Below the pieces are notes generated by a model that was not told where the DNA came from, searched no databases, and saw only the letters and a program-made list of their open reading frames with translations. A program made the translations under genes and the position numbers. Below are positions 9,628 through 53,606 of a stretch of 64,000 bases of DNA, one piece after another. Positions within the stretch are counted from its first letter, which is position 1, and every line of letters begins with the position of its first letter. The stretch comes from Clostridia bacterium. GTDB lineage: Bacteria; Bacillota; Clostridia; Christensenellales; CAG-138. The DNA is taken from contig JAFYJD010000025.1 of NCBI GenBank assembly GCA_017538255.1, positions 131,573 to 195,572 of the forward strand. The letters are read 5' to 3'.

Positions 9628-9703
9628 TGGTGGAGCATAGCGGACTCGAACCGCTGACATCCACACTGCCAGTGTGGCACTCTACCAGCTGAGCTAATGC
9701 CCC
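9628..9703 (-). tRNA. tRNA-Ala (anticodon GGC), CCA encoded
   Basis: 76-nt cloverleaf folded by hand. The acceptor stem GGGGCAT/ATGCTCC has the G3:U70 Ala identity pair. The anticodon loop is CTGGCAG and the T-loop is TTCGAGT. Confidence 0.9.
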
Positions 9704-24667: not shown

Positions 24668-25020
24668 GGGGGCGTACATGGTTTCGACGGGGATCGTGGA
24701 TGCCGGATAAGCGAGCCGAAGCCCCGTGCTTCGTTAAAAACGGGAAACTCTTAAAAATAACCGACGAATATAACTTCGTACCCGTCGCCGCTTAATCGGC
24801 GACCGTCCGCCCGCAGTTGCCCACGACTGCGGATACGGGCGTCATTAAAGTGGGGAACCAGCCGCGGCCTGTTCCGACCGCGGTGGGATCAAGGGACTAC
24901 CGAAAGCGCGATCCTGTCGGCAGGAGCGTGAAATAGGGAATGCTAAAATACCGACTACGCTCGTAGAAAGTCTTGTAGACAGTTTTTCGGACAGGGGTTC
25001 GATTCCCCTCGCCTCCACCA
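24668..25020 (+). ncRNA. ssrA: tmRNA (SsrA), 353 nt including CCA
   Basis: The 5' end GGGGGCGTACATGGTTTCGACGGGG pairs with the 3' end ...GGGGTTCGATTCCCCTCGCCTCCACCA (G3:U wobble). The in-frame tag ends ...DEYNFVPVAA-TAA (stop at 24793-24795). The resume codon is not certain. Confidence 0.95.
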
Positions 25021-34366: not shown

Positions 34367-35440
34367 ATGATAAAACTGCATATAAGCGCGCAGATGCCCT
34401 GCGCCGTCGGCATATTTTCGGATGCTTCGTGCCTGTTCGGCACCGATAAAAGTGTGTTTGAACTTGATGCGGACGGAAGCATTCTTGTAAAAATATCGCC
34501 TATCGTATGCGCCGGCGAGTATGTGCCTGCCGAAACGGGTGTTCGTTTGGATATCAAAATTGAAAACGGCATAAAAACGCTTTTACTCGATAGTACGTAT
34601 CGGGACAACGCCGAACTGATCGACTGGGGTTTTGATCTTTATGAACTCGAGCCGCGGTTTTTGTTTTATCGGTCAAGGCCGCTCCCGCCGCAAACACTCG
34701 ACGAAGCGGAGTTTGTTTCAAACGGCAACCGCTGCGAACTGACGCTGTTTACTGATAACGGTCTGCTTTTGGAAACGCGCTCCTGCGGCGCCGAGCGCAC
34801 GTACTCGCTCGGTGCCGGTCAAGGCGGAACGCTGCGCACGCTCGACACCGGCAAAGCCGTTATACTCATCGTTGAATGCGAAACTGTATGTGAAGACAAG
34901 ACCATGCTCCCCCGACCCGAAAAGATGAAGAGGGTGCTTATCATAAACGAAAACTTCGAGACCGTTGGCGAGATCAGATCCTCAAACTGCCGCTTTGAGG
35001 ACGGTTATCTTATTTCGATCGAGCCGCTCGGCACCGTGCTTGGACATGAGGCGCGGCGAATGTACGAACTTACGGAGAACGGCGCGGCGGAACTGTCTGA
35101 TGAAGCGGAGGTCGGATTCTTTTCGCACGAGAAAACAACGCCGAAGGACGGTGTTGAAACGGCTGTGGCGTTTTTGGAATGCCTGCTTCTCGGCAGGGAG
35201 GATGAATGCCTTTCGCTCATCTCGCAAGGGTTGGCGAACCGCACGGACTACGATACGATATGCGAGTTCTTCGGCGACTTTGACAGATGCAAAAAAACTC
35301 CGTTTTGCAGTCAAAACGGAGCGGTAACAGTCGGTACCGTTTCCGATGAAACGGCAAGAGCGTATGTATTTGACGTTGAAAACGGGCTTATCCGCGACGT
35401 TTCCGAATACGCGCCCGAAGCACAGTTTCAAAGCGAATGA
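34367..35440 (+). CDS. hypothetical protein (no family recognised)
   Basis: 357-aa ORF immediately downstream of dinB with a GGTGA-type RBS. Its 3' end overlaps the convergent ABC-2 permease gene by 53 nt. Confidence 0.5.
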   Translation: MIKLHISAQMPCAVGIFSDASCLFGTDKSVFELDADGSILVKISPIVCAGEYVPAETGVRLDIKIENGIKTLLLDSTYRDNAELIDWGFDLYELEPRFLFYRSRPLPPQTLDEAEFVSNGNRCELTLFTDNGLLLETRSCGAERTYSLGAGQGGTLRTLDTGKAVILIVECETVCEDKTMLPRPEKMKRVLIINENFETVGEIRSSNCRFEDGYLISIEPLGTVLGHEARRMYELTENGAAELSDEAEVGFFSHEKTTPKDGVETAVAFLECLLLGREDECLSLISQGLANRTDYDTICEFFGDFDRCKKTPFCSQNGAVTVGTVSDETARAYVFDVENGLIRDVSEYAPEAQFQSE

Positions 35441-36545
35441 GGGCGGATAACGCAAGCATCAATAAAGCGAACACAGCGAGTATCGCCAACGATGCGGCGC
35501 TCCCGTTGAGCGCGTCAAGATACTGCCCCTGAGGTGTGAAGAGCGCAAGTCTTTTCATAGTTTCTATGGACGAAAGATCGGCAAAGCAGCCGCCCGCAAG
35601 GCTCGTGATAAACGCCGTCAGCGGCACCGCGATTTCCGTTCTTGCCGATGAGGAACAGGAGCCGATAAGAAGTGCGAGCGAACTTGCGGCAAGCAGATAG
35701 GTAAAGCCGCAGATCACAGAATACACCGTGATGCGCTCGCACTTTATTATCAGCGACAGCGCGAAGACCGCGCCGCCTAACAGCATCAGCGCGATCAGGT
35801 CTGCGGCAAGATCGACCGCCCTGCCCGCTTCGACTGAGCCCATACGCATCCTGACGGCGCGGGCGTCGTCCGAGCCCGTGAATACGCCGAGCATCAACAC
35901 GATCAACATCATCACGAACGCGCAGAAGCCCGCATAGCGCGGCGCAAACGCTCCGAGCACCGTGCTCGCCGCAACGCCCGATCCGATGCGGCTCACTTCG
36001 AGCGGCAGGTCTTCATCCGATATATGTTTTATGAATGCTTCATCGATGCGCGCTCTTTCATCCGCGTTCGACGCGGCTCCATTAAGACTTGAAAAATAAT
36101 CGGGCGCGTTTAAACGGGCTTTTAATACTACCGCCGTCCCTGCGATCAACTCACGCGCCGCTTCCGATGAAGAAACGCCCTTTGCGGGTGTGTAATTAAG
36201 CGCGCTCTCGCCTGATGTGAGTTTTTCGGCAAAATCATTGTCGATCATAAGCGTGCCCTCGGCAACGCCTGACTTTTCGAGTTTTTCGGCTGCCGTTTTA
36301 TCCGCACACAGAATGACCTCCGCGCCGCTGTTCATACCTTCGAGCATATCTATATACGCCTTTGATTCGGCGGATGCAGCATTGTCGATTACCGCGATAA
36401 CGAGTTTTTGATTGCCCTTTGTGCCGATCGCGTCCCGCGCGGCAAAAAACATCAGCGCGGCGCAAACGAACACTGCCGCCGCCATCACACAGCCGCCGCA
36501 CATCGCACGCAGTTTTTTAACGGAAATTGCCAACGCTTTCATCAT
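35388..36545 (-). CDS. ABC-2-type transporter permease
   Basis: TM1, then a large extracytoplasmic loop, then a C-terminal TM bundle. Its ATG overlaps the upstream stop (ATGA). Confidence 0.7.
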   Translation of the reverse strand: MMKALAISVKKLRAMCGGCVMAAAVFVCAALMFFAARDAIGTKGNQKLVIAVIDNAASAESKAYIDMLEGMNSGAEVILCADKTAAEKLEKSGVAEGTLMIDNDFAEKLTSGESALNYTPAKGVSSSEAARELIAGTAVVLKARLNAPDYFSSLNGAASNADERARIDEAFIKHISDEDLPLEVSRIGSGVAASTVLGAFAPRYAGFCAFVMMLIVLMLGVFTGSDDARAVRMRMGSVEAGRAVDLAADLIALMLLGGAVFALSLIIKCERITVYSVICGFTYLLAASSLALLIGSCSSSARTEIAVPLTAFITSLAGGCFADLSSIETMKRLALFTPQGQYLDALNGSAASLAILAVFALLMLALSALIRFETVLRARIRKRRG

Positions 36546-37825
36546 ACGCCGCTCCTTTTGACGAGCCGTTTGCCGCGTCTTTGTGTTCCAAGAAGAAATG
36601 CAATAAACGATACCGTAACGGCGATAGTTATTATGAGCGCAAGCGGGACGATGCTTGAGAGCATAATGCCGCTTTTATTTGAAAGCGCATTTATAAGATG
36701 CTTGGCGTTTGATACGGCACCGATTTTTTTGGCGTATTCGGGCAGGAGCGCGAACGGATAGATCGCGCCGCCAAAGAGCAGCGAAAGCGCCGTCGCCATG
36801 CCGCCCGCAAGCATAAATTGCTCCGTATTCCCTGTTATAAAACCAAAAGCAAGCACGACGAAGAAGCAGGAAAGGAACGCGAATATCAGCGCAAGAAGCG
36901 GCAGCATCCCCGCGCCGCCGAGTTCCGGACGGAGTATCAGTATCAGCGGCACTATGCCCGCGGAGCAGAATACCGCGCCTGATACGAGTTTTGAGAGTAT
37001 CAGTTCGATAACGTTTCCGCCTATTGAAACGAAACGGTCAAACAGGCCCATTCTTCGCTCGTCTGGCATAGTCTTGACAACGCCGAGTGAAACGAGGAAG
37101 AAGAGCATAATAGCAGCCGCCGCAAAGAACGTGTTTTTTACGTTCGATTCGATCTGCGCCATACTTTCACCGTCATATAAAACTGAACGGCGCCCCAAAG
37201 CGCCTTCGATTATCGATGCGGCGGCGGAGTCAAGATATGCATCAAGCAGTTCTCCGTCCTCGTGAAAGTTTTCGCCGTAGCGCTCCGTATAAGCGGCGCT
37301 CCAGGCGGCGCGTTCGCCCGCGATTATTCGTGCAACGCCCGATATGATATTCTCGGTTATGCGGCTTTCGACCGCCATTTTTTCGTTTGTATAGAGGCGT
37401 ACACGGGTTTCATCCTCGGTGTAGAGATCGTAAAAAAAGTCCGTCGGGATAGTGATTATCGCGGCGCAATCCTTGAACGCATCGACAGAAAAAAGAGCGT
37501 CCGATCGTTTGATATTTCCGTTTTCTTCCGTATCTATTGTGTCGAAAGCGCCCGAAGTGATATCTTCCGAGGTGTAGACCTTTACATTTGAAAACAGGTC
37601 GATCTCTTTGAACTGGGAAATGAGCGACCTTGACATCAATGTTTCGTCAAGGTCGTAAACCGCAACCGCAAACGGCTTCACGGAAAGGTCCGCCGCTGCG
37701 GTATCGTTCGATCCTGCAAGCATCAAAAGCGCCGCGAGCGCGGGAAGCAGCAAACTCAATATGCCCGATGCCGAAAGGAACAGGCAGATATCCTTGTATA
37801 TGCTTGCGAAAAACGACTTCATCAT
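36542..37825 (-). CDS. ABC-2-type transporter permease
   Basis: Track ORF trimmed to MMKSFFASIYKD at 37825, where the ATG overlaps the ATPase stop (ATGA). Same topology as the downstream paralogue. Confidence 0.7.
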   Translation of the reverse strand: MMKSFFASIYKDICLFLSASGILSLLLPALAALLMLAGSNDTAAADLSVKPFAVAVYDLDETLMSRSLISQFKEIDLFSNVKVYTSEDITSGAFDTIDTEENGNIKRSDALFSVDAFKDCAAIITIPTDFFYDLYTEDETRVRLYTNEKMAVESRITENIISGVARIIAGERAAWSAAYTERYGENFHEDGELLDAYLDSAAASIIEGALGRRSVLYDGESMAQIESNVKNTFFAAAAIMLFFLVSLGVVKTMPDERRMGLFDRFVSIGGNVIELILSKLVSGAVFCSAGIVPLILILRPELGGAGMLPLLALIFAFLSCFFVVLAFGFITGNTEQFMLAGGMATALSLLFGGAIYPFALLPEYAKKIGAVSNAKHLINALSNKSGIMLSSIVPLALIITIAVTVSFIAFLLGTQRRGKRLVKRSGV

Positions 37826-38445
37826 ACGATCCTGCCGCCGCTGAGTTCCACCGTGCGGTCGCAAACGCGCGCAATCTCGTCGCCATGGTGCGATACGAGC
37901 AATACCGCGCAGTCGATCCGCTTCAACCGCTCTATCGCCGAGAGTATGGATTCGACCGACGCGGTATCCGCGCCGACCGTCGGCTCGTCGAGCAGCAAGA
38001 GTTTTACGTCGCCAACGAGTGCGCACGCAAGGTTCAGGCGGCGCTTCATTCCTCCCGAATATGAGGATACACGCTTATCCGCCTTATCCGAAAGCCCGAC
38101 AAGTTTCAAAAGATATTTTATTCGGACGGCTCTGCGCTTGCCGTACAGACCGATCGCCGACGCCCAATAGCGCAGATTCTGCCGGCCCGTGAGCGAGGTG
38201 TAAACGGCGAGATCCTGCGGCACATAGCCGAGTTCTCCCGGGTCAAATTTCTGCGTTTCGACAGCGCCTGCGTCCTGTTTTTCCACGCCCGCGATTATGC
38301 GAAGCAATGTGCTTTTACCCGCGCCGTTCGCGCCGATGACGCCGACCACCTCGCCTTTTTTTACGGTAATGGAAATCGGCCCCAATACGCAATCGGGACC
38401 GTAGGATTTTGTGATATCGGTTATTCTTATAAGTTCATCGTCCAT
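37822..38445 (-). CDS. ABC transporter ATP-binding protein
   Basis: Walker A GANGAGKST, signature YSGGMKRRL, Walker B LLLLDEPT. Confidence 0.88.
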   Translation of the reverse strand: MDDELIRITDITKSYGPDCVLGPISITVKKGEVVGVIGANGAGKSTLLRIIAGVEKQDAGAVETQKFDPGELGYVPQDLAVYTSLTGRQNLRYWASAIGLYGKRRAVRIKYLLKLVGLSDKADKRVSSYSGGMKRRLNLACALVGDVKLLLLDEPTVGADTASVESILSAIERLKRIDCAVLLVSHHGDEIARVCDRTVELSGGRIV

Positions 38446-38454
38446 ATATCGATC

Positions 38455-40137
38455 TTACATAATGCTGAGTTTGAGCATAAAGCGCGACAGCACCTTCATA
38501 AGTTCAGACGAAAGCGTTTCGCCAATATTCCTTATCTGAGCTTTGCTGTTCACCACCGTTACTGTGGAATCTGGAGTTTTTATGTCTGAAGCCCTGTCCG
38601 TAGTATGATAGTTGTACGTTATGCTTTGCGGAAGTTCATAGCCGAACATCTCCGTCGATTGACCGAGGTCCAACGTAAAGATATGGTCGGTGCCGCCCTC
38701 CTCGCCCGCTTTTACCGAAAGCGCGAAGGATGTCTGTTCGCCAACATACGAATATGGATAGTCTGCTTTTATATCATATTCACCGTGATTGATGCCTAAC
38801 GCGGATTTTTTAGTTTTATCCATATCGGATACTGCAACGATCAGTTTTGCTTCCTCTACGGGCATATCTACGATTATGGTGCCGTATAGCAGCCCTGCCT
38901 TTTCTTCAAGATCGACAAGCACCGATGCTATGAGTCCATCTTCGTTCTTTACGGCAAGATAGAGTTTGTTGTCGTAGCGTTCAAACTCGATGCCGCCTTT
39001 GTCGGTCGAGATATACTGCGCGATCGCTTTGCCCTTTTTCGTTACGACCGTCCAAGTGAAGTTCGCTTCCTTGATGGCGCGCGCCGTCTTGTCGGCGTTT
39101 GCACAGAGTTCATCGCCCGCTTTCTCAAACAGCGGCAAGAGGCCCTCGCTCCTGTTCAGCCCCTCATAGGAATAGTAGCGGGCAAGCAGGGATAAAAGCA
39201 CATTCGCATAGTCTTCGCCGACGTACTCGATCGCGAGCGAAAGCACGTGATCCGAGAGTTTTTTATCACCCGCGAACTCTTTTCCGAACGCCCGTATCGT
39301 ATCGGCAACGCGCTCCTCATCGGGCGTGAATGTGATGCGCTTGCAACCCTTGACCTTGGCAGAGATACCATTGAGTTCAACGCTGCCGCCCGTCATTTCG
39401 AAGTCTTCCGAGTCGAATGCCTTTATAAGTATCTTTTTGTAGCGGTTCTTGATACGGTCAAAACTCTTTTCAAGGTTGGCGACCGATTTGTATTCGAGTT
39501 TTTCGCCGTCTGTGATCCCAGCGACAAATTGAGCAAATCTGCCGTTATTTATAAGGTAGTACTCTTTTGAGAGTTCCGGCAGGTAAAAGCCCACATTCTC
39601 CTTATCGGCCGTAAATGTGCCAGAGATCACCGATGAGCCCTTATAATCTATGGAAGCGCCTATGATATGCGAGCCGTCTGCGTTATCGGTATTGAAATTT
39701 AAGGTGATGTTTTTAAGGAGTTTTTCAACGTCCGGATCCGCGCCCGCGACCGAAACGACGGAAAGCGAGCCGTCCGTCGAAATATTGGCAAAATCCGGCG
39801 CGTAACTGCCGTTCAACATCGCTTCCACGTTGCTGTTTCGATCGTTTGAAACAAAGAAAGCTTTTTGCGCGCGCGCAAAGCGGAGCATCGGGCTGTAGTA
39901 GAACTTTAGAGCGAATACCGCGCCGACGATCAGCAAAAGAGCAAGCGCCGAAAGCAGCACAGCCGTTATGACCTTTTTCTTGTTGGACTTTTGTTTTTTC
40001 GGCACCGGGGGGATATGGAACTGTTCGTTTGTTTCCTCCGTTTCGCCTGCGGCGAACTCCACGGTCTTCATCCCGCAATCCGGACAGAACTTATCGCTGT
40101 CCGAAAGCGTCGTATTGCAGTTATTGCATTTGCGCAT
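38455..40137 (-). CDS. zinc-ribbon membrane protein with a large extracytoplasmic domain
   Basis: N-terminal CNNC...CPDC zinc ribbon, a lysine-rich stretch, one TM helix, and about 470 aa outside the membrane. GGAGG RBS. First gene of the ABC-2 operon. Confidence 0.65.
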   Translation of the reverse strand: MRKCNNCNTTLSDSDKFCPDCGMKTVEFAAGETEETNEQFHIPPVPKKQKSNKKKVITAVLLSALALLLIVGAVFALKFYYSPMLRFARAQKAFFVSNDRNSNVEAMLNGSYAPDFANISTDGSLSVVSVAGADPDVEKLLKNITLNFNTDNADGSHIIGASIDYKGSSVISGTFTADKENVGFYLPELSKEYYLINNGRFAQFVAGITDGEKLEYKSVANLEKSFDRIKNRYKKILIKAFDSEDFEMTGGSVELNGISAKVKGCKRITFTPDEERVADTIRAFGKEFAGDKKLSDHVLSLAIEYVGEDYANVLLSLLARYYSYEGLNRSEGLLPLFEKAGDELCANADKTARAIKEANFTWTVVTKKGKAIAQYISTDKGGIEFERYDNKLYLAVKNEDGLIASVLVDLEEKAGLLYGTIIVDMPVEEAKLIVAVSDMDKTKKSALGINHGEYDIKADYPYSYVGEQTSFALSVKAGEEGGTDHIFTLDLGQSTEMFGYELPQSITYNYHTTDRASDIKTPDSTVTVVNSKAQIRNIGETLSSELMKVLSRFMLKLSIM

Positions 40138-40909: not shown

Positions 40910-41401
40910 ATGCTAAAAAAACAACCTCGGCTCGGTTGGAAACTGCATAGACTGGATCTGCTTATGCAGTTGTATCTGCGTTCAAACGGCGACGATGTGA
41001 TACCGCCCGCGCAGATGCGTATGCTTGAGTTCATCGCCTCGCACCCCGGCTGTACGCAGGCGGATGTCGCGGAAGAGATGCAGGTTTCGCCCGCATCCGT
41101 CGCGCAGAGCATAAAGCGTATCGAAGCGTCGGGCTATGTCAGCCGAGCGGCGTGCAAGGGCAATCTCCGTGCCAACAGCCTCGAGATAACCCCGAGCGGC
41201 ATCGACGCCGCAGCGCTCTGCCGCAAGGTATTCGACGGGCTCCAGGATCGGATGCTTCTCGGTTTTTCCGCCGACGAGCGCGAGGCGCTCGATTCTATGA
41301 TAACGCGGCTTATGTCCAACCTCGAATCCGGCGATACGGGCTCGATGAACAATATGGAACTGTCCCTGCTTGTAAAGGCTGACGGCGAAAAGCGCAAATA
41401 A
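40910..41401 (+). CDS. MarR-family transcriptional regulator
   Basis: 163 aa with a winged-helix pattern (QMRMLEFIASHPGCTQADVAEEMQVSPASVAQSIKRIEASGYV). Confidence 0.85.
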   Translation: MLKKQPRLGWKLHRLDLLMQLYLRSNGDDVIPPAQMRMLEFIASHPGCTQADVAEEMQVSPASVAQSIKRIEASGYVSRAACKGNLRANSLEITPSGIDAAALCRKVFDGLQDRMLLGFSADEREALDSMITRLMSNLESGDTGSMNNMELSLLVKADGEKRK

Positions 41402-41431: not shown

Positions 41432-43168
41432 ATGATAAAAAAACTGTTCCCCGCCGTGCGCGGATATGAACTGCATTCTTTGGGTGCGTCGTTTATGATT
41501 ATACTCGAAGGCGTTCTTGAGATCATGATACCGTTCTTTATGACAAAACTCATAAACGACGGAATCGATGTTCCGAATCCCAGTATGCGCGTCATTTTGA
41601 CCTATGGCTCGCTGATGCTGCTTATGGCGGTGTTTGCACTCATCACGGGCGCGCTCTGCGCGAGGTTTGCCGCCGTCGCCGGCACGGGCTTTGCCGCAAA
41701 TCTTCGCAATATGCTCTTCCGCAAAGTGCAGGATTTTTCGTTTGCGAACGTTGACAAGTTTTCAAGTGCAAGCATCGTAACAAGGCTCACGACCGACGTT
41801 ACGAACATCCAAAATCTTTTTACTATGCTGATAAGGATGACCGTTCGCAACTTCATAATTATGATAACGGCGTTCTGCTTTGCCGTTGCCGTAAACCCGA
41901 AACTCTCGCTTGTTTTCGCCGTTACGATACCTCTGCTTGCCGGCATCATGCTGTTCATTATGATAATGGCGCATCCGTTCTTTGAAAAGATGCTCACAAG
42001 GCTCGATCTTATGAACGCGAAGGTACAGGAAAACCTTATCGCAATGCGCGTTGTAAAGGCGTTTGTTAAAGGTGAAGACGAAAAGGTCTCCTTCAACGAT
42101 TCCGCGCTCGCGCTCAAAAAGGCGCAGCTTGCCGCGGAGCGCATCGTCATTTGGAACAACCCGGTGTCGCAGCTTATCTTCTACGCCGCTATGATCGCCG
42201 TTTGCTATTTCGGCGGCCGGCTGATAATCGACGGCAATATGAAGATCGGCGACCTTTCGGGCTTCCTTGCCTATATCGGGCAGATCCTCTCAAGCGTAAT
42301 GATGCTATCGATGCTGTTCGTCAGTTTCATCATCACCCGCGCCTCACAAAAGCGCATCGCCGAGATACTTGACGAGAAGATCGACATAAGCGATGATGAC
42401 GCGGATGCTTCCCTCGAGGTGCCGGACGGCAGCGTTGAGTTTTCGGACGTAAACTTCTCCTACGCCAAGAACCCCGAAAACCTTACCTTGACCGGCGTCA
42501 ATTTCTCCGTGCGCTCCGGTGAAACGATAGGCATAATCGGCGGCACGGGCTCCGCAAAGACCACGCTTGTTCAACTGATCCCGCGCCTTTACGAAGTGCT
42601 TTCCGGCAGCGTTAGCGTCGGCGGACACGATGTGCGCGAATACAAACTGCACACCCTGCGCGACAAAGTTGCGATGGTGCTTCAAACCAATCTGCTCTTC
42701 AGCGGCACGATAAGGGAAAATCTCAAATGGGGCAACGAAGACGCCACCGATGCCGAGATAGAGGCCGCCTGCCGCGCCGCCTGCGCGCACGACTTCATTA
42801 TGAGTTTCCCGCACGGCTACGACACAGACCTTGGTCAAGGCGGCGTCAATGTTTCCGGCGGTCAGAAACAGAGGCTGTGTATAGCGAGGGCACTGCTTAA
42901 AAACCCGAAGGTCGTTATACTCGACGACTCCACGAGCGCCTGCGACACCGCGACCGACGCTTCGATCAGAAAGGCGCTGAAAACGGAACTTGCCGGTACG
43001 ACCACCTTTATCATCGCCCAGCGCATCGCTTCCGTTATGGACGCGGACAGGGTAATGGTGCTTGACGACGGCAAACTCGTCGCTTTCGACACGCCGGAAA
43101 GGCTGCTTGAGACCAATGACATCTACAAAGAGGTCTACGAATCCCAGATGAAAGGAGCTGAAGCGTAA
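41432..43168 (+). CDS. ABC exporter permease/ATPase fusion, half-transporter carrying the degenerate ATP site
   Basis: Walker A GGTGSAKTT and signature VSGGQKQR. Walker B is VVILDDSTSACD, with Asp in place of the catalytic Glu. Confidence 0.9.
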   Translation: MIKKLFPAVRGYELHSLGASFMIILEGVLEIMIPFFMTKLINDGIDVPNPSMRVILTYGSLMLLMAVFALITGALCARFAAVAGTGFAANLRNMLFRKVQDFSFANVDKFSSASIVTRLTTDVTNIQNLFTMLIRMTVRNFIIMITAFCFAVAVNPKLSLVFAVTIPLLAGIMLFIMIMAHPFFEKMLTRLDLMNAKVQENLIAMRVVKAFVKGEDEKVSFNDSALALKKAQLAAERIVIWNNPVSQLIFYAAMIAVCYFGGRLIIDGNMKIGDLSGFLAYIGQILSSVMMLSMLFVSFIITRASQKRIAEILDEKIDISDDDADASLEVPDGSVEFSDVNFSYAKNPENLTLTGVNFSVRSGETIGIIGGTGSAKTTLVQLIPRLYEVLSGSVSVGGHDVREYKLHTLRDKVAMVLQTNLLFSGTIRENLKWGNEDATDAEIEAACRAACAHDFIMSFPHGYDTDLGQGGVNVSGGQKQRLCIARALLKNPKVVILDDSTSACDTATDASIRKALKTELAGTTTFIIAQRIASVMDADRVMVLDDGKLVAFDTPERLLETNDIYKEVYESQMKGAEA

Positions 43169-45114
43169 TGAGTCCCGCTCCCAAAAGTTCCGAAAGAATA
43201 GTACGCGGTCCCGGCGCGCGCGGCGGCCCGAAGTTCGCAAAGCCGAAAAACACAAAGGGCACCTTCATGCGCCTTTTACGTTACTTCAAAAAATACGCGG
43301 CAACGCTCATCATCGTTACCGTATGCATCATAATTGCCGCCGAAGCGAATGTTTTCGGCACGGCGCAGCTCAAAACGCTCATCGACGACCATCTTGCACA
43401 GATGGTTGCCAACGGCCGTACGAGCGAACGCTGGGCGGCGTTTACTTGGGCGATAACGCGCATGGGACTTGTGTACCTGATCGGCGCAATATGCATCTAC
43501 ATACACTCGCGGCTTATGCTTCGGGTATCCACGGGCATACTCTACGATATCCGCACCGAGATGTTCTCCAAGATGCAGAAATTGCCGATCAAGTATTTTG
43601 ACTCCCATACCCACGGCGAGATTATGAGCCGCTATACCAACGATACCGACAGTATGCGCGAGATGCTCGGGCAGAGCATTCCCAATCTAATCAACAGCAT
43701 TTTCCGCGTCGTCAGCGTATTCGTTATGATGGTGATATTGAGCCCCCTGCTTACTGTAATCACCGTTGTTATGCTCGTGCTTATGATAACCGTCGTCAAG
43801 GCGCTTGGCAAACGCAGCGGCGCGTTCTATAAAAAGCGTCAGGCGGCGCTTGGCGTTGCGAACGGCTATATTGAGGAGATGACCGAAGGACAGAAGGTCG
43901 TCAAAGTATTCTGCCGCGAGCAGATGACCAACGAGCGTTTTGCTCAGCTCAACGACGAACTTCGCAAAGCTGAAGCGGGTGCCAACACCTGGGCAAGCAT
44001 ACTGATGCCGATAATGGGCAACCTCAGTTATATCCAGTACGCGATAACCGCCGTCATCGGTACTCTGATGGTGCTCGCGGGCATCAAGGGCAACTATCCT
44101 GTGCTCCTGACGCTCAGCGTCGGCAGTCTTATCACCTTCCTGCAGTACACAAGGAACTTTGCTCAACCCATCACAATGATGAGCCAGCAGTTCAACTCCA
44201 TTCTCTCCGCGCTCGCGGGCGCAGAACGGATATTCGCGCTGATCGACGAAGCGCCCGAAGAGGACGAAGGCCGCGTTACGCTTGTGAACGCGCGTATCGA
44301 CGAAAACAGCGAGCTGCGAGAGTGCACCGAGCGCACGGATATCTGGGCGTGGAAAACCCCTGACGGCGAACTCAGGCGAGTTCGAGGCCATGTTGAGTTC
44401 AACGACGTTACGTTCAGTTATGACGGCGAAAAGATCGTGCTTGACGATATCAGCCTGTACGCAAAGCCCGGTCAAAAGATCGCTTTTGTAGGCTCGACCG
44501 GCGCCGGCAAAACGACGATCACCAACCTGATAAACCGCTTCTACGATATCCAGCAGGGCGAGATCACCTACGACGGGTTCAATATCCGCGATATCGAAAA
44601 GGACGCGCTCAGACGCAGTCTTGCGATGGTGCTTCAGGACACGCATCTGTTCACGGGGACTGTGCGCGAGAATATCCGTTTCGGACGCAAGGACGCGACC
44701 GACGATGAGATCGAGCGTGCCGCAAAACTCGCAAACGCGCATTCATTCATAATGCATCTTCCCGAGCGCTATGACACTATGATCGTTGACGACGGCGAAA
44801 ACCTCTCTCAGGGGCAGCGCCAGCTTATCGCCATCGCGCGCGCGGCGATCGCGGATCCGCCCGTGTTGATCCTTGATGAAGCGACCAGTTCCATCGATAC
44901 ACGCACCGAGGCGCTCATCGAAAAGGGTATGGACGAACTTATGAACGGCCGCACGGTATTTGTCATCGCACACCGTCTGTCGACCGTTCGCAACTCCAAC
45001 GCTATTATGGTGCTTGAACAGGGCAAGATCATCGAGCGCGGCGATCATCACGAGTTAATCGAGCAAAAAGGCAGGTATTATAAACTCTATACGGGCGCGT
45101 TTGAATTGAGTTGA
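43168..45114 (+). CDS. ABC exporter permease/ATPase fusion, half-transporter carrying the consensus ATP site
   Basis: Walker A GSTGAGKTT and Walker B VLILDEATSSID. The signature is the non-canonical LSQGQRQL. Its ATG overlaps the upstream stop (TAATG). Confidence 0.9.
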   Translation: MSPAPKSSERIVRGPGARGGPKFAKPKNTKGTFMRLLRYFKKYAATLIIVTVCIIIAAEANVFGTAQLKTLIDDHLAQMVANGRTSERWAAFTWAITRMGLVYLIGAICIYIHSRLMLRVSTGILYDIRTEMFSKMQKLPIKYFDSHTHGEIMSRYTNDTDSMREMLGQSIPNLINSIFRVVSVFVMMVILSPLLTVITVVMLVLMITVVKALGKRSGAFYKKRQAALGVANGYIEEMTEGQKVVKVFCREQMTNERFAQLNDELRKAEAGANTWASILMPIMGNLSYIQYAITAVIGTLMVLAGIKGNYPVLLTLSVGSLITFLQYTRNFAQPITMMSQQFNSILSALAGAERIFALIDEAPEEDEGRVTLVNARIDENSELRECTERTDIWAWKTPDGELRRVRGHVEFNDVTFSYDGEKIVLDDISLYAKPGQKIAFVGSTGAGKTTITNLINRFYDIQQGEITYDGFNIRDIEKDALRRSLAMVLQDTHLFTGTVRENIRFGRKDATDDEIERAAKLANAHSFIMHLPERYDTMIVDDGENLSQGQRQLIAIARAAIADPPVLILDEATSSIDTRTEALIEKGMDELMNGRTVFVIAHRLSTVRNSNAIMVLEQGKIIERGDHHELIEQKGRYYKLYTGAFELS

Positions 45115-45126
45115 GCGCGGTATCGT

Positions 45127-45158
45127 CGGGGCCGGCAAATACGCCGGCCCCGTTTTTG
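45127..45158 (+). terminator. intrinsic terminator after the ABC exporter pair
   Basis: 10-bp GC stem cggggccggc/gccggccccg followed by TTTTTG. Confidence 0.8.
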
Positions 45159-45245
45159 TATCAAGCGGCGCGAAAACGGGATAAGCGCATACGAGTTTTA
45201 CCGACCCCCATTCTGTTTCCTATACGAAGCGGGCGCACGGATGTA

Positions 45246-45274
45246 TTGCATTTGTAAAAAAACTATGTTATACT
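45246..45274 (+). promoter_or_regulatory. sigma-A-type promoter for the HprK-like / rSAM / PqqD cassette
   Basis: TTGCAT-17 nt-TATACT. Confidence 0.5.
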
Positions 45275-45346
45275 TATTTACTGTGATTGAAGCGGCAGTA
45301 TTATGCCATTTCGGCGCAGAATAATGATTTGGGGCAATATTCTTCA

Positions 45347-46207
45347 ATGATCGCCAAATACCGTTTTGCGGACGTCAACGTGCTTATAAAGACCGATTTC
45401 GAGTTTGAACTCATCAACAAATTTGATGAGTTCCGCTATGAGTTCGGCAAGCCCGATCTGACATACGAGTACTATATGCAGAACGGATTTGAGACCCCCG
45501 ATTATCCACCGATCTATACCGATTCTTTTTGTCGTGTCTATCGCAAGGACGGCATAACCTATCGTTATTTTACAGCGATGCCCGATAATCAGTACAATGC
45601 GCTGATAACCGACGAAGCCGCCTCCGATGGCGTGTTCAAGGTGTATCTGCAAGGCTTGCAGGAGCCTGTATACTTCACCGAACTTCGTCTATTCAACTAT
45701 TTTGCCGTCGAACACGCTATGGCGCTTTTCGGCGGAGTGCTGCTCCACTCGTCCTACATAATCCACAACGGCGAGGCGATACTCTTTTCCGCACCGTCCG
45801 GAACGGGCAAATCCACACAAGCTGACCTTTGGCACAAGCATATGGGCTCGCTCATAGTAAACGGCGATAGATCTTTGCTTAAGATCGAGAACGGAGCGAT
45901 AAAGGTTCATTGCCTTCCATACTGCGGATCGTCCAATATCAGCAACAACATAACTGCGCCGCTCAAGACCATAGTTATTCTGAGGCAGGCGCCGTACAAC
46001 AAGATCACTCGACTCCGTCCCGCCGAAGCGTTCAAGCACATCTACTCCGAATGCTCCGCAGATATATGGTACGAAAATGATGTGCGCGTTATCGGCGATA
46101 TAATCGAGACCGCAATCAATACCGTTCCCGTTTACAAACTCGAATGTCTGCCTGACAAAGACGCCGTTCATACTCTCGCCGGCGCGCTCGGGATAGAGTG
46201 CAAATAA
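45347..46207 (+). CDS. HPr-kinase-related P-loop protein (HprK C-terminal-domain-like)
   Basis: LLHSSYIIHNGEAILFSAPSGTGKSTQADLW...NGDRSLL resembles the HprK/P C-terminal catalytic domain. I chose ATG 45347. The track start TTG 45287 lies only about 13 nt after the predicted -10. Confidence 0.6.
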   Translation: MIAKYRFADVNVLIKTDFEFELINKFDEFRYEFGKPDLTYEYYMQNGFETPDYPPIYTDSFCRVYRKDGITYRYFTAMPDNQYNALITDEAASDGVFKVYLQGLQEPVYFTELRLFNYFAVEHAMALFGGVLLHSSYIIHNGEAILFSAPSGTGKSTQADLWHKHMGSLIVNGDRSLLKIENGAIKVHCLPYCGSSNISNNITAPLKTIVILRQAPYNKITRLRPAEAFKHIYSECSADIWYENDVRVIGDIIETAINTVPVYKLECLPDKDAVHTLAGALGIECK

Positions 46208-46239
46208 CGCTCAAGACTATTTTATAGGTGGTACACCAA

Positions 46240-47529
46240 ATGAGAAACGATCCCGTACAGGCACAGATCGCCCGTCAATTATCGGCAGAACCTAAACTTG
46301 TTACCTACCTTTTTACAAAGGCAGGTGTTAGAAAGGTTCCGCTTTCGGGCACATTTGAGTTGACTCCGCGCTGCAATTTCAACTGCAAGATGTGCTACGT
46401 TCACCTCTCCAAAGAGGAACAGGAAGCTCGCGGTCGAGAACTAACTGCCGCCGAATGGATAGCGCTCGGCGAAGAATGCAGCAAACAGGGTATGCTCTTT
46501 TTGCTTCTCACCGGAGGCGAGCCCCTTATCCGTCCCGATTTTCGCGAGATCTATCTCGGGCTCAAAAAACTCGGTCTTATACTGTCGATCAACACCAACG
46601 GATCGCTGATAGACGACGAGATGATCGAGTTTCTCAAAGCCAACCCGCCGTATAAGCTCAACATCACTCTCTACGGCTCGAGTCCCGAGGTCTACAACGA
46701 AGTAAACGGCAACCCGGCCGCGTTTGAAAAGACATACCGTGCTATCAAGGCGCTTAAGGAAGCGGGTCTTGCTGTTAAACTGAACTGCAGCACCACCCAG
46801 TACAACAGGGATGATGTTGGCAATATCTATAATCTTGCGGCCGATCTGAATATCCATACCCAGATTGCCGAGTATATGTTCCCGCCGATGCGCATCTCCG
46901 CCGAATCCGCGGGCAAAGCCGTAAGGCTCAGCGCAAAGGAAGCGGGTCGGGAGATGTTCCTAAACATCAAGCGCCGTTCCTACGACGAAAAACTCTATCT
47001 TATGAGGCTTAGGAAGGTCGCCAGCGGCATAAAGGTCATCGACGAAGACGCCGAATGCCTTGATGTTCCTACCGCGGAAACGCTCACAGCGACCGAGCAC
47101 ATCCGCTGCCGCGCCGGCTCCTGCGCATTCTGGGTATCCTGGGACGGCAAACTCTCCCCCTGCGGTATGATGGTCGAGCCTTCGTGCAGCATAACCGAAC
47201 TCGGCTTTGCCGAAGCGTGGGAGCGCGTTTGCGAGGCTACCCGCGCCATTATGATGCCGCCCAAGTGCACAAACTGCGACAAGCGCTTTGCCTGCGTCGT
47301 ATGCGCGGCGTCCACCTATTGCGAAACGGGCTGTTTTGGCAAGGATGAGCCCACCTACATATGCGAGATGATCGAAGAGTATCTGCGCATTGTTCATGAA
47401 GAATACGAACGCCTGTTAAAAGAGGGCGCATACGAAGATATTCTGAAAGAAGAGGCGGAAGCCCGCGAAAAGGCTCTCGCCGCCGCAGAGGCACAGGCAA
47501 AACCCGAGGCCGAAGGCAAAAAAGAATAA
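46240..47529 (+). CDS. radical SAM enzyme with a C-terminal SPASM-type auxiliary cluster domain
   Basis: CNFNCKMC (CX3CX2C, 46372-46395). C-terminal CRAGSCAFWVSWDGKLSPC (CX12GX4C) and CTNCDKRFACVVC (CX2CX5CX2C). Start at ATG 46240 after AGGTGG. Confidence 0.85.
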   Translation: MRNDPVQAQIARQLSAEPKLVTYLFTKAGVRKVPLSGTFELTPRCNFNCKMCYVHLSKEEQEARGRELTAAEWIALGEECSKQGMLFLLLTGGEPLIRPDFREIYLGLKKLGLILSINTNGSLIDDEMIEFLKANPPYKLNITLYGSSPEVYNEVNGNPAAFEKTYRAIKALKEAGLAVKLNCSTTQYNRDDVGNIYNLAADLNIHTQIAEYMFPPMRISAESAGKAVRLSAKEAGREMFLNIKRRSYDEKLYLMRLRKVASGIKVIDEDAECLDVPTAETLTATEHIRCRAGSCAFWVSWDGKLSPCGMMVEPSCSITELGFAEAWERVCEATRAIMMPPKCTNCDKRFACVVCAASTYCETGCFGKDEPTYICEMIEEYLRIVHEEYERLLKEGAYEDILKEEAEAREKALAAAEAQAKPEAEGKKE

Positions 47530-47552
47530 TTTATCGAAAAAGGAGACTGGAT

Positions 47553-47813
47553 ATGCAACTGAAGAACAACTACATCATCCGCGAGATAATGGGCGACACC
47601 CTGCTTATTCCCGACGGCGAGCACCTTTTTGAGTTCAACGGGATTATCACGCTGAACGAACTCGGCGTATTCATACTCAAATTGCTTCCGGATGTGGAGA
47701 GCGAAGATGAGATCGTCAAAAATATACTCGAAGAATACGAAGTTGACGAGGCGACAGCCAAAAAGGATGTTTGCGATTTTATGGAACAGCTCCGCGCGAT
47801 CAAGATAATCTGA
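47553..47813 (+). CDS. PqqD-family protein (RRE-type peptide chaperone)
   Basis: 86 aa. The size and pattern (ITLNELGVFILKLL...EDEIVKNILEEYEVDEATAKKDVCDFMEQL) are typical of PqqD-like proteins. AAGGAG RBS. Confidence 0.75.
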   Translation: MQLKNNYIIREIMGDTLLIPDGEHLFEFNGIITLNELGVFILKLLPDVESEDEIVKNILEEYEVDEATAKKDVCDFMEQLRAIKII

Positions 47814-47840
47814 TACTCTTTATTTGCAAAATGCCCATAT

Positions 47841-47874
47841 AAAAAACGACCGTTTTTACGGTCGTTTTTATTTG
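47841..47874. terminator. bidirectional intrinsic terminator (PqqD gene / rpoD)
   Basis: Stem aaaacgaccg/cggtcgtttt flanked by A- and T-runs. Confidence 0.75.
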
Positions 47875-47880
47875 CATTCA

Positions 47881-48969
47881 TCACTCGATATAGTCCTTGA
47901 GGCGTTTGCTTCTCGACGGATGTTTGAGTTTTCTGAGCGCCTTTGCTTCGATCTGACGGATGCGCTCGCGGGTAACGTTGAACTCCTTGCCCACGTCTTC
48001 GAGAGTTCTGTTCTTGCCGTCAACAAGACCGTAGCGGAGTTTGAGCACGCGCGCTTCACGGGGAGTCAGCGTGTTGAGCACCTCGGTAAGCTGCTTTTTG
48101 AGCATCGCGTAGGTCGCCATACTGTCGGGTGCTGGCGCTTCGTCGTCGGGGATGAAGTCGCCGAGGTGGCTGTCCTCCTCCTCGCCGATAGGCGTTTCGA
48201 GCGATACGGGCTCCTGCGCGATCTTGATGATCTCGCGCACCTTTTCCTCGCTGTAGCCGAGTTTCTGGGCGATCTCATCGGGACGGGGCTCGCGGCCGAG
48301 TTCCTGAAGCAGTTCGCGGTTTACGCGGACAAGTTTGTTTATCGTTTCGACCATATGCACGGGAATGCGGATGGTCCTTGCCTGATCTGCGATCGCACGG
48401 GTTATTGCCTGACGGATCCACCAGGTCGCATAGGTCGAGAACTTATAGCCTTTGCGGTAATCGAACTTATCGACCGCCTTGATGAGACCGAGGTTGCCTT
48501 CCTGGATCAGATCGAGGAACTGCATTCCCCTGCCCACATAGCGTTTTGCGACGCTGACTACAAGGCGAAGGTTGGCTTCTGTCAACTGCTGCTTTGCCTC
48601 TTCGTCGCCGTCCGCCATACGCTGGGCGATCTCCTTTTCCTCTGGTTCTGACAGAAGCGGTACCTTGCCGATATCCTTGAGATACATACGCACCGGATCG
48701 TCTATGGAGATGCCCTCTGCAGCGGCGAACTTTGCGCTGATCTCGACGACCTCGTCTGAAGCGAGTTCGTTCTGATCCACTTCCTCAACAACGTCGATGT
48801 TCGCGTCCTCAAAGCGGTCGTAGACAACTTCCATCTGGTCGACATCGAGCAGGTCTCCGCCGAGCGTGTCTATGACCTCTTTATATGTCAATTCGCCCTT
48901 GTCCTTGCCCCTCTCGATCAACTCGTCCACCTTGCGCATTGACGACATTCTCTCTTGTGTTTCCAACAT
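47881..48969 (-). CDS. rpoD: RNA polymerase primary sigma factor
   Basis: 362 aa with conserved regions 2 to 4 ([36 protein letters not shown]; [20 protein letters not shown]). GGAGG RBS. Located downstream of dnaG. Confidence 0.95.
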
Positions 48970-53419: not shown

Positions 53420-53512
53420 TGGCGGAGAAGGAGGGATTTGAACCCTCGCGCCCCTTCGCAGAGCCTACTCCCTTAGCAGGGGAGCCCCTTACAGCCACTT
53501 GGGTACTTCTCC
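53420..53512 (-). tRNA. tRNA-Ser (anticodon GCT), long variable arm, CCA encoded
   Basis: Hand fold: acceptor GGAGAAG/CTTCTCC, anticodon stem-loop ctccc-CTGCTAA-gggag, long extra arm, T-loop TTCAAAT. Confidence 0.88.
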
Positions 53513-53517
53513 GTATA

Positions 53518-53606
53518 TGGCGGAGAGAGAGGGATTCGAACCCCCGGTGCCTTGCGGCATCACCGGTTTTCAAGACCGGCTCCATAAACCACTCGGACAT
53601 CTCTCC
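53518..53606 (-). tRNA. tRNA-Ser (anticodon TGA), long variable arm, CCA encoded
   Basis: Hand fold: acceptor GGAGAGA/TCTCTCC, anticodon stem-loop ccggt-CTTGAAA-accgg, long extra arm, T-loop TTCGAAT. Confidence 0.88.

Follow-up and report, generated by a model that had tools for sequence, protein, structure and literature searches.

The window analyzed here is a 64,000-nt stretch of contig JAFYJD010000025.1 from a Clostridia bacterium, and the system in question is a trio of co-directional genes within it, which encode a P-loop protein, a radical S-adenosylmethionine (SAM) enzyme with SPASM-type cysteine motifs, and a small protein of the PqqD family (Table 1). In GenBank their products (MBR4435920-22, locus tags from IKS90_07505) are described as a hypothetical protein, a radical SAM protein, and a PqqD family protein, respectively. 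The initial annotation, which was made from the nucleotide sequence alone, regarded the trio as a peptide-modification cassette with no evident precursor gene at its side. We lean towards the reading that the trio is the intact enzymatic core of a widespread maturation system similar to those of ribosomally synthesized peptides with post-translational modifications (RiPPs), and that its precursor is encoded elsewhere in the genome, which is suggested by comparison with related loci and by analogy to characterized systems. The list of open reading frames (ORFs) and the sequence bear out the three genes, their placement, and the gaps between them of 20 or 32 nt (depending on the start chosen for the radical SAM gene) and 23 nt, and every motif quoted in the initial annotation is present in the trio sequences.

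The start of the P-loop gene at ATG 45347 is backed by the alignment of homologs, with alternative TTG codons at 45287 and 45329. The radical SAM gene most probably starts at ATG 46240, which has AGGTGG 8 nt upstream, and the alternative GTG 46228 lies within this AGGTGG-type ribosome-binding site. The PqqD gene most probably starts at ATG 47553, with AAGGAG upstream. Terminator-like hairpins were detected on both sides of the trio. The terminator upstream of the trio has an all-GC 10-bp stem followed by a T run, and an equivalent hairpin is located 3′ of the ABC (ATP-binding cassette) gene in L091, a relative with 64% identity. The bidirectional terminator downstream has a 12-bp stem between A and T runs, and the same hairpin together with the end of rpoD follows the PqqD gene in another relative, L090. 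The promoter hexamers (TTGCAT at 45246-51 and TATACT at 45269-74) match the consensus in 8 of 12 positions and were not listed by a consensus scan. The promoter was accepted despite this weak score because its position and form, including the hexamers and the extended −10 TG, are conserved in L091 (TTGCAA-17-TGCTATAAT), which of the relatives with sequence upstream of the trio is the closest. With a promoter and a terminator of its own, the trio forms an intact unit. The proposal that it forms a horizontally transferred island was not supported, as the GC content of the region resembles that of its flanks and is not anomalous. An Rfam scan of the 40-52 kb part of the window found no family in the trio region, including its 5′ untranslated region (UTR).

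Table 1. Features of the trio locus and of its surroundings in the 64,000-nt window
Feature	Position	Strand	Basis or remark
Trio (P-loop protein, radical SAM enzyme, PqqD/RRE protein)	45347-47813	+	co-directional
ScmC-family P-loop protein with predicted HprK/PEPCK fold, 286 aa; putative peptide Ser kinase	45347-46207	+	
Radical SAM/SPASM enzyme, 429 aa	46240-47529	+	
Discrete PqqD-family RiPP recognition element (RRE), 86 aa	47553-47813	+	Pfam PqqD
Probable trio promoter: −35 TTGCAT, 17-nt spacer, extended −10 TGtTATACT	45246-45274	+	sequence reading
Intrinsic terminator of the upstream MarR-ABC-ABC operon, separating it from the trio	45127-45152	+	hairpin scan
Bidirectional terminator common to the trio and convergent rpoD	47842-47869		hairpin scan
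Two micro-ORFs	45241-45324 and 45303-45350	+	dismissed as precursor candidates
rpoD	47881-48969	−	convergent with the trio
MarR-type regulator	40910-41401	+	ORF translation
Heterodimeric ABC exporter pair	41432-43168 and 43168-45114	+	ORF translations
ABC-2-type transporter region	35388-40137	−	ATPase at 37822-38445
tmRNA gene	24668-25020		predicted tag peptide DEYNFVPVAA
Pair of neighboring tRNA-Ser genes	53420-53606		
tRNA-Ala gene	9628-9703		

The 86-aa protein matched the Pfam PqqD model with 61.3 bits (gathering score 23.4, E 1.1e-16), which agrees with its earlier assignment as a PqqD/RRE-like protein and indicates that it is a bona fide PqqD domain. Its best NCBIfam match was the lasso-peptide PqqD chaperone (8e-11, under the cutoff of this model), and its closest named relatives are the lasso-peptide B1-type chaperones. 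The scores against the ScmD model (19.2 bits, cutoff 100) and PqqD_rel_X TIGR04353 (16.5 bits, cutoff 35) were also under the cutoffs. The protein shares 55-73% identity with its counterparts in peptide-containing or sister loci, which are described below.

The second protein matched Pfam Radical_SAM with an E value of 5.7e-25, while the Pfam SPASM hidden Markov model (HMM) was sub-threshold (14.7 versus 21.5 bits). The cysteine motifs comprise CX3CX2C (C45/C49/C52), CX12GX4C (C290-G303-C308), CX2CX5CX2C (C343/346/352/355), and C375. Every motif position is 100% conserved among 61 homologs, and the ten Fe-S cysteines (C45/49/52 and the seven SPASM cysteines) are also invariant among 36 homologs. 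The full SPASM cysteine set together with the Radical_SAM match confirms the earlier assignment of this enzyme. No NCBIfam equivalog cutoff was reached. The best score was that of AhbD (119.7 bits versus 500), and the NirJ, MoaA, mycofactocin, and PQQ equivalogs were still further under their cutoffs, while the two models for the radical SAM enzymes of the SynChlorMet (SCM) cassette scored 88 and 65.2 bits (cutoff 400 each).

As the top NCBIfam scores belong to AhbD (120 bits), NirJ2, and MoaA, and as an anaerobic sulfatase maturase (anSME) is among the structural neighbors, the enzyme could be regarded as a cofactor or protein-maturation enzyme (heme b/d1, MoaA-like, or anaerobic sulfatase maturase) with coincidental neighbors. 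This is highly improbable, because these scores are 4-5 fold under the curated cutoffs, so that the profile searches did not place the enzyme in any non-peptide family, and because its top structural matches are RiPP maturases. In the Foldseek comparison of its AlphaFold 2 (AF2) model, which had a predicted local distance difference test (pLDDT) score of 85.7, SkfB and SuiB were nearest, followed by PqqE and anSMEcpe, and the best PDB sequence matches were SkfB and PqqE. A further argument against a cofactor role is synteny, which is obligate for a PqqD RRE and in most relatives extends to a leader-bearing peptide. The match to the NCBIfam models of AlbA, SkfB, and StsB sets in near residue 100 of those enzymes, which indicates that the fused N-terminal RRE that they carry is missing from the window enzyme; its absence fits a reliance on the separate PqqD protein. 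The enzyme's C-terminal part (47395-47529, residues ~385-429) is a Lys/Glu/Ala-rich extension predicted to form one long helix, which is found only in the window lineage (429-432 aa versus ~370-400 aa elsewhere).

The P-loop protein contains the sequence LLHSSYIIHNGEAILFSAPSGTGKST. Both this protein and all 120 of its 120 top homologs carry a Pfam PF27840 (ScmC) hit, which is taken from precomputed annotation with the score not recomputed. The NCBIfam ScmC model TIGR04249 gave 24.9 bits (E 1.1e-5, cutoff 125) and covered only the P-loop half, while HprK_rel_A gave 17.8 bits (E 1.4e-3, cutoff 200) and HprK_rel_B gave 13.3 bits (cutoff 200). Across 29 homologs the invariant residues are H134, the FxAPSxTGKSTQA P-loop with K155, which reads APSGTGKST in the window, NGDR with D174 and R175, P191, G194, and S196. 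The AF2 model, built on the alignment of homologs, had a pLDDT of 92.5 and a predicted TM-score of 0.88. Its top Foldseek matches in the PDB were exclusively ATP-dependent phosphoenolpyruvate carboxykinase (PEPCK) and HPr kinase/phosphatase; they included 1knx, 1kkl, 1kkm, 1jb1, 3tqf, and 2qmh (E 2e-6 to 1e-4, probability 1.0, TM-score 0.3-0.5). PEPCK and HPr kinase/phosphatase have one common P-loop fold. A profile of the P-loop family searched against the PDB sequences retrieved no HprK. The model thus indicates a PEPCK/HprK-type fold, while by profile assignment the sequence family is ScmC and not Hpr_kinase_C, so that the earlier description of this protein as HprK-like stands for the fold but not for the sequence family.

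To describe the distribution of the trio, one genome per species was scanned. There were at least 599 pattern matches to the P-loop protein, and a check by tblastn upheld those in at least 576 species genomes. The hosts belong to the Lachnospiraceae, Oscillospiraceae, Ruminococcaceae, Acutalibacteraceae, Erysipelotrichaceae, and include one Selenomonadaceae metagenome-assembled genome (MAG), with Intestinibacter bartlettii DSM 16795, the source of locus L053, and Mediterraneibacter glycyrrhizinilyticus An427 as cultured hosts, and several genomes have two cassettes. Of the 80 related loci fetched, 51 have all three genes within 4 kb on the same strand, and 42 have exactly the gene order of the window. 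The trio is therefore strongly syntenic in other genomes, contrary to one of the outcomes that the initial annotation had named as refuting its view. Metagenome scans with the peptide alignment of the sub-clade described below and with the window P-loop protein gave no match from either query. The window locus is an ordinary member of a large family, and sequence comparison identifies the trio as a putative peptide-modifying module of gut and rumen Bacillota present in hundreds of species.

Clustering of all ORFs from the 80 neighborhoods revealed three further recurrent families: a giant VWA protein, an anchored protein of ~250 aa, and a small peptide, whose gene is located between those of the other two or elsewhere close to the trio. 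No cyclase or protease family was recurrent in this clustering. An HMM built from the peptide and run over 82 loci detected 61 copies in 56 of them, so that the comparison of neighborhoods proposed by the initial annotation did yield a recurring small peptide gene. The peptides have a median length of 85 aa and are typically ~80-125 aa long. The motif [YW]xxPx[ILVFAM] is present in the first 25 residues of 59 of the 61 peptides, within the leader consensus MKKxYxKPEIMFExFxLSTNIAxxC (also given as MKKxYxKPxIxFExF..[IV]A..C); MKKTYTEPNFYYEDLELS is a family-type leader with Tyr5 and Pro8. Exactly four cysteines occur in 43 of the 61, the last one mostly within CY[HN]xP, and the core is variable. 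The C-terminal residue is Ser in 55 of the 61 (the commonest ending is LFNS), and in most of the remaining peptides a Ser lies one or two positions away from the C-terminus. A GGAG/GAGG Shine-Dalgarno sequence precedes 38 of 51 peptide genes, versus a background of 10%. The family is not represented by any model in Pfam or NCBIfam. Protein searches with the peptide of L086 returned one match when word-indexed and four with exhaustive phmmer; divergence within the family is too great for searches that start from one sequence. The co-location of a leader-bearing peptide with the trio in these related loci suggests a peptide-maturation role for the trio, with the window itself having no such peptide.

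Longer variants of ~125-200 aa retain the leader and the terminal Ser. They were observed at L028:12409-12834, L058:6357-6755, L074:13443-13820, L051:11591-12010, L033:5925-6470, and L069:6203-6802, where a WxxPx[IV] or YxxPx[V] leader is followed by NEYVAAC or NNAVSAC; many of them end in NPNAS, and they adjoin more divergent copies of the radical SAM and P-loop genes. At L029:5509-7100, in the Selenomonadaceae MAG, three tandem paralogous precursors (80, 83, and 79 aa), each with FNSL at its C-terminus, are located upstream of one cassette.

The giant protein is secreted and has a median length of ~1,640 aa; besides its VWA domain, it carries a Sec signal and ends in a short C-terminal tail that contains Trp. 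The anchored protein has a single N-terminal transmembrane segment or a lipoprotein signal, and for a 267-aa member neither Pfam nor the PDB sequences gave a match. A layout of six genes, in the order giant VWA protein (1,000-2,260 aa), precursor, anchored protein, and trio, is shared by about half of the related loci. It is typical at L005:675-10208 and is also seen in L006, L017, L018, L032, L035, L046, L049, L050, L052, L060, and L072, with a gap of only ~15-20 nt between the giant protein and peptide genes. This layout hints at a cell-surface role. A search of the window for homologs of the anchored membrane protein or of the giant VWA protein found none.

The features of the peptide correspond to those of substrates of known enzymes. 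The element [Y/W]xxPx[L/V/I/F/A] was experimentally defined as bound by discrete lasso RREs and recurs in the leaders of linear polyphosphorylated peptides (LPPs), in whose clusters an HprK-like kinase likewise accompanies a discrete RRE (PMC13381572). In lasso clusters of the paeninodin type, the linear precursor has a strictly conserved Ser at its C-terminus, which HprK-like kinases phosphorylate and polyphosphorylate (PMC9266682). Because the leader motif is the RRE-binding element and HprK-like kinases phosphorylate the terminal Ser, the peptide is a convincing candidate substrate. By analogy to these systems, the 86-aa PqqD protein would bind the [YW]xxPx[ILV] leader, as the discrete lasso and LPP RREs do, and would present the core to the RRE-less radical SAM/SPASM enzyme. 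This enzyme would then install radical cross-links in the core, most plausibly Cys-derived thioethers, and the HprK-fold P-loop protein may phosphorylate the terminal Ser with ATP, in the manner of the paeninodin-type kinases. The kinase step is the weakest in this scheme. In the lineage with the ABC pair-trio-rpoD arrangement, the precursor gene would be unlinked from the enzymes and located elsewhere on the chromosome.

Several observations weigh against the proposed maturation of such a peptide by the trio. The Pfam scan of the P-loop protein gave no Hpr_kinase_C match at E up to 0.1, and its likeness to HprK is at the level of the fold only, with the NCBIfam scores far under the cutoffs. 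A catalytic His-Lys-Asp-Asp tetrad is required in lasso kinases (PMC9266682). In a manual alignment to the HprK motif GKSE...(V/I)ADD, the first Asp appears to be replaced by Gly in the P-loop protein, so that three of the four tetrad residues, with H134, K155, and D174 invariant, would be kept; because NGDR would then replace ADD, this protein may be no kinase. The LPP kinase targets Ser3 of the core, near the leader, and not a C-terminal Ser. The pairing of the peptide with the enzymes is suggested by co-localization and motif analogy only, and the only similarity of the peptides to a sactipeptide precursor was marginal (StsA, E 0.009, 2 of 21 peptides), and the type of cross-link made by the radical SAM enzyme cannot be predicted. 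Finally, no precursor was found in the 64-kb window when all six frames were searched with two HMMs, one for the 85-aa peptide family and one for the 122-aa family of the sub-clade, and with two regular expressions.

The last of these observations can be considered in the light of the closest relatives of the window. Its proteins are 50-67% identical to those of a distinct sub-clade and at most 48% identical to the remainder of the family. Within the sub-clade, three contexts were distinguished. Context A, in which the trio lies between the ABC pair and rpoD, comprises the window together with L091, in which the same ABC C-terminus lies upstream, and L090, in which the terminator and the end of rpoD recur downstream. 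In context B, which includes at least three species (L001-3, L081-85, L088-89), the trio is located between lysine-fermentation genes/EamA and an AhpC-like gene. In context C (L086 and L087), the trio is followed directly by a family peptide of 122-124 aa with the pattern MKKTYTEPNFYYEDLELSTIVTGDC..C..C..CYNGP..ASL. In a neighbor-joining tree of the radical SAM proteins, contexts B and C are sister groups, A branches as the sister of these two together, and the outgroup L004 has the peptide. The topology together with the peptide in L004 suggests that adjacency of the peptide is ancestral, and that contexts A and B became unlinked from it. In context B the trio is always followed, in convergent orientation, by an AhpC/Redoxin-like gene and a gene for a multi-pass membrane protein of 117-118 aa (L081:12520-13513, L082:11054-12065, and L088:5726-6744), and nothing equivalent is present in the window.

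The six-frame search with the same HMMs and regular expressions covered L001-3 and L081-89 in addition to the window. The observation that no precursor adjoins the trio in the window proved true, as nothing precursor-like was present anywhere in the 64 kb, and none was found in the short flanking sequences available from L090 and L091 or within ±8-10 kb in context B. These absences, and the fact that all three contexts are housekeeping neighborhoods, could mean that the trio of the window lineage has lost its ancestral precursor and now either acts on another, unrelated peptide or protein substrate or is a decaying leftover. We consider this unlikely, but still a serious alternative. L090 and L091 (64-67% identity, same context) and the context B species have the precursor-less layout with all catalytic residues intact. 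At 50-67% identity to the window proteins, the invariant catalytic residues and the ten Fe-S cysteines are kept, and the invariant residues and Fe-S ligands are retained across 33-50% sequence divergence, which suggests purifying selection rather than decay. The identity of the PqqD protein to those of peptide-containing or sister loci argues that leader recognition is probably unchanged. Split arrangements also exist in other genomes: L030 and L039 from one MAG, and L026 and L069 from a single contig, each combine one peptide-less with one peptide-containing cassette, and they are precedents for an unlinked precursor. The intactness of the trio, its own promoter and terminator, and its persistence in several species with no precursor next to it make a precursor encoded in trans the simplest reading.

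The initial annotation had named two micro-ORFs ahead of the P-loop gene as possible precursors. Both exist, they are the only small ORFs within the transcription unit, and one of them contains Cys. Neither has a Shine-Dalgarno sequence, a [YW]xxP leader, or a C-terminal Ser, neither is matched by the family peptide HMMs, one of them overlaps the promoter, and the orthologous 5′ UTR of L091 has no ATG at all. Hence, they were rejected, and it is extremely unlikely that either one is the substrate.

The conserved junction between the second ABC gene and the trio in L091 raises another question, which is whether the ABC exporter pair and the trio are one functional unit of five or six genes serving export or immunity. 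In several relatives (for example L053, L055, L069, L012, and L028) a single ABC exporter gene is indeed located directly 3′ of the cassette. This arrangement is quite unlikely to explain the window, since the pair and the trio are separated by a strong terminator and by a distinct promoter that is conserved, other members of the sub-clade have no adjacent ABC pair, and the ABC genes of the window have ~25% identity to the cluster-linked ones. The MarR regulator at the head of the pair is the usual layout of an efflux operon. Because of the terminator, the promoter of the trio, and the MarR head gene, the ABC pair was treated as a separate efflux operon despite the conserved junction. The stop and start codons of the two ABC genes overlap. 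Elsewhere in the window, the ATPase of the ABC-2-type transporter is accompanied by two large ORFs that resemble permeases and by a 560-aa protein that has a zinc-ribbon at its N-terminus and a single transmembrane segment, and a tmRNA gene and tRNA genes are also present (Table 1).

The trio can be compared with several known systems. The SCM cassette (ScmC, ScmD, ScmE, ScmF; TIGR04248-04251) was reportedly defined bioinformatically by Haft and Basu in 2011, with its precursor not identified. SCM combines the same three kinds of protein, namely an ScmC-type P-loop protein (the window protein is Pfam ScmC), a PqqD-like RRE, and radical SAM/SPASM enzymes, and like the window copy it has no recognized precursor adjoining. 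The window differs in having one radical SAM gene instead of two (ScmE and ScmF), in scoring under all four NCBIfam cutoffs (25/125, 19/100, 88/400, and 65/400), and in belonging to a family found in gut and rumen Bacillota, not in Syntrophobacter, Chlorobium, or methanogens, whose relatives reveal a precursor family. To our knowledge, cassettes of radical SAM/SPASM, PqqD, and ScmC-type proteins have been recognized computationally, and we know of no substrate for them.

The paeninodin-type lasso and LPP systems resemble the trio in their discrete PqqD/RRE, since that of the window is nearest to lasso B1, and in the HprK-fold P-loop protein. The family precursor, with its [YW]xxPx[ILV] leader and conserved terminal Ser, is like those of kinase-associated lasso peptides, and an MsbA-like exporter is often adjacent in the relatives. 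On the other hand, the Asn-synthetase-like cyclase (C) and the B2 leader protease of lasso clusters are absent from the three-gene unit, which is flanked by the ABC exporter and rpoD, and the SpI-like leader peptidase and NTP-transferase of LPP clusters are neither in the window nor among the recurrent neighbors of the 80 loci. The window has a radical SAM/SPASM enzyme instead, its kinase-like protein is ScmC and not Hpr_kinase_C, and the family precursors are longer and contain Cys. With SkfB, AlbA, SuiB, and the PqqE-PqqD pair the trio shares the CX3CX2C motif and the seven-Cys SPASM set, and SkfB, SuiB, and PqqE are the closest solved structures; the Cys-containing family substrates are reminiscent of sactipeptides and ranthipeptides, and the separate PqqD partner of PqqE. 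The window enzyme differs from these in lacking a fused N-terminal RRE, in matching no equivalog, and in having an extra kinase-like partner. In the HPr-rel-A system (TIGR04352 and TIGR04353), a P-loop protein related to HprK likewise has a small chaperone of the PqqD family as its partner, but the scores of the window proteins (17.8 with a cutoff of 200, and 16.5 with a cutoff of 35) indicate a different sequence family. A literature search, the coverage of which was incomplete, found no paper on an HprK-like, PqqD, and radical SAM system of this kind. The earlier view of the locus as an undescribed system has to be divided: ScmC is already a Pfam family and the architecture parallels SynChlorMet, while the precursor family has no Pfam or NCBIfam model.

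A more far-reaching proposal, which we regard as tentative and somewhat doubtful, is that the trio and the peptide family constitute a new RiPP class abundant in gut and rumen Bacillota. In such a class, cores of ~55-100 aa would be cross-linked at their four cysteines and phosphorylated at the terminal Ser under the direction of a lasso-like YxxP leader. The coupling to the VWA protein would point to a cell-surface or adhesion function and not to an antibiotic, and the window would represent a stand-alone module embedded among housekeeping genes, with its precursor in trans. The locus also suggests a caution for genome mining, as an apparently orphan cassette may be a real system with an unlinked precursor. 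What most deserves attention lies at the level of the family, in its defined precursor and its frequent coupling to a giant VWA surface protein. A trio that is common in Bacillota is now tied to a defined precursor, which makes the pairing testable by co-expression and mass spectrometry. If the proposal is true, a class of peptides that are both radical-cross-linked and phosphorylated would be added to the repertoire of gut and rumen bacteria.

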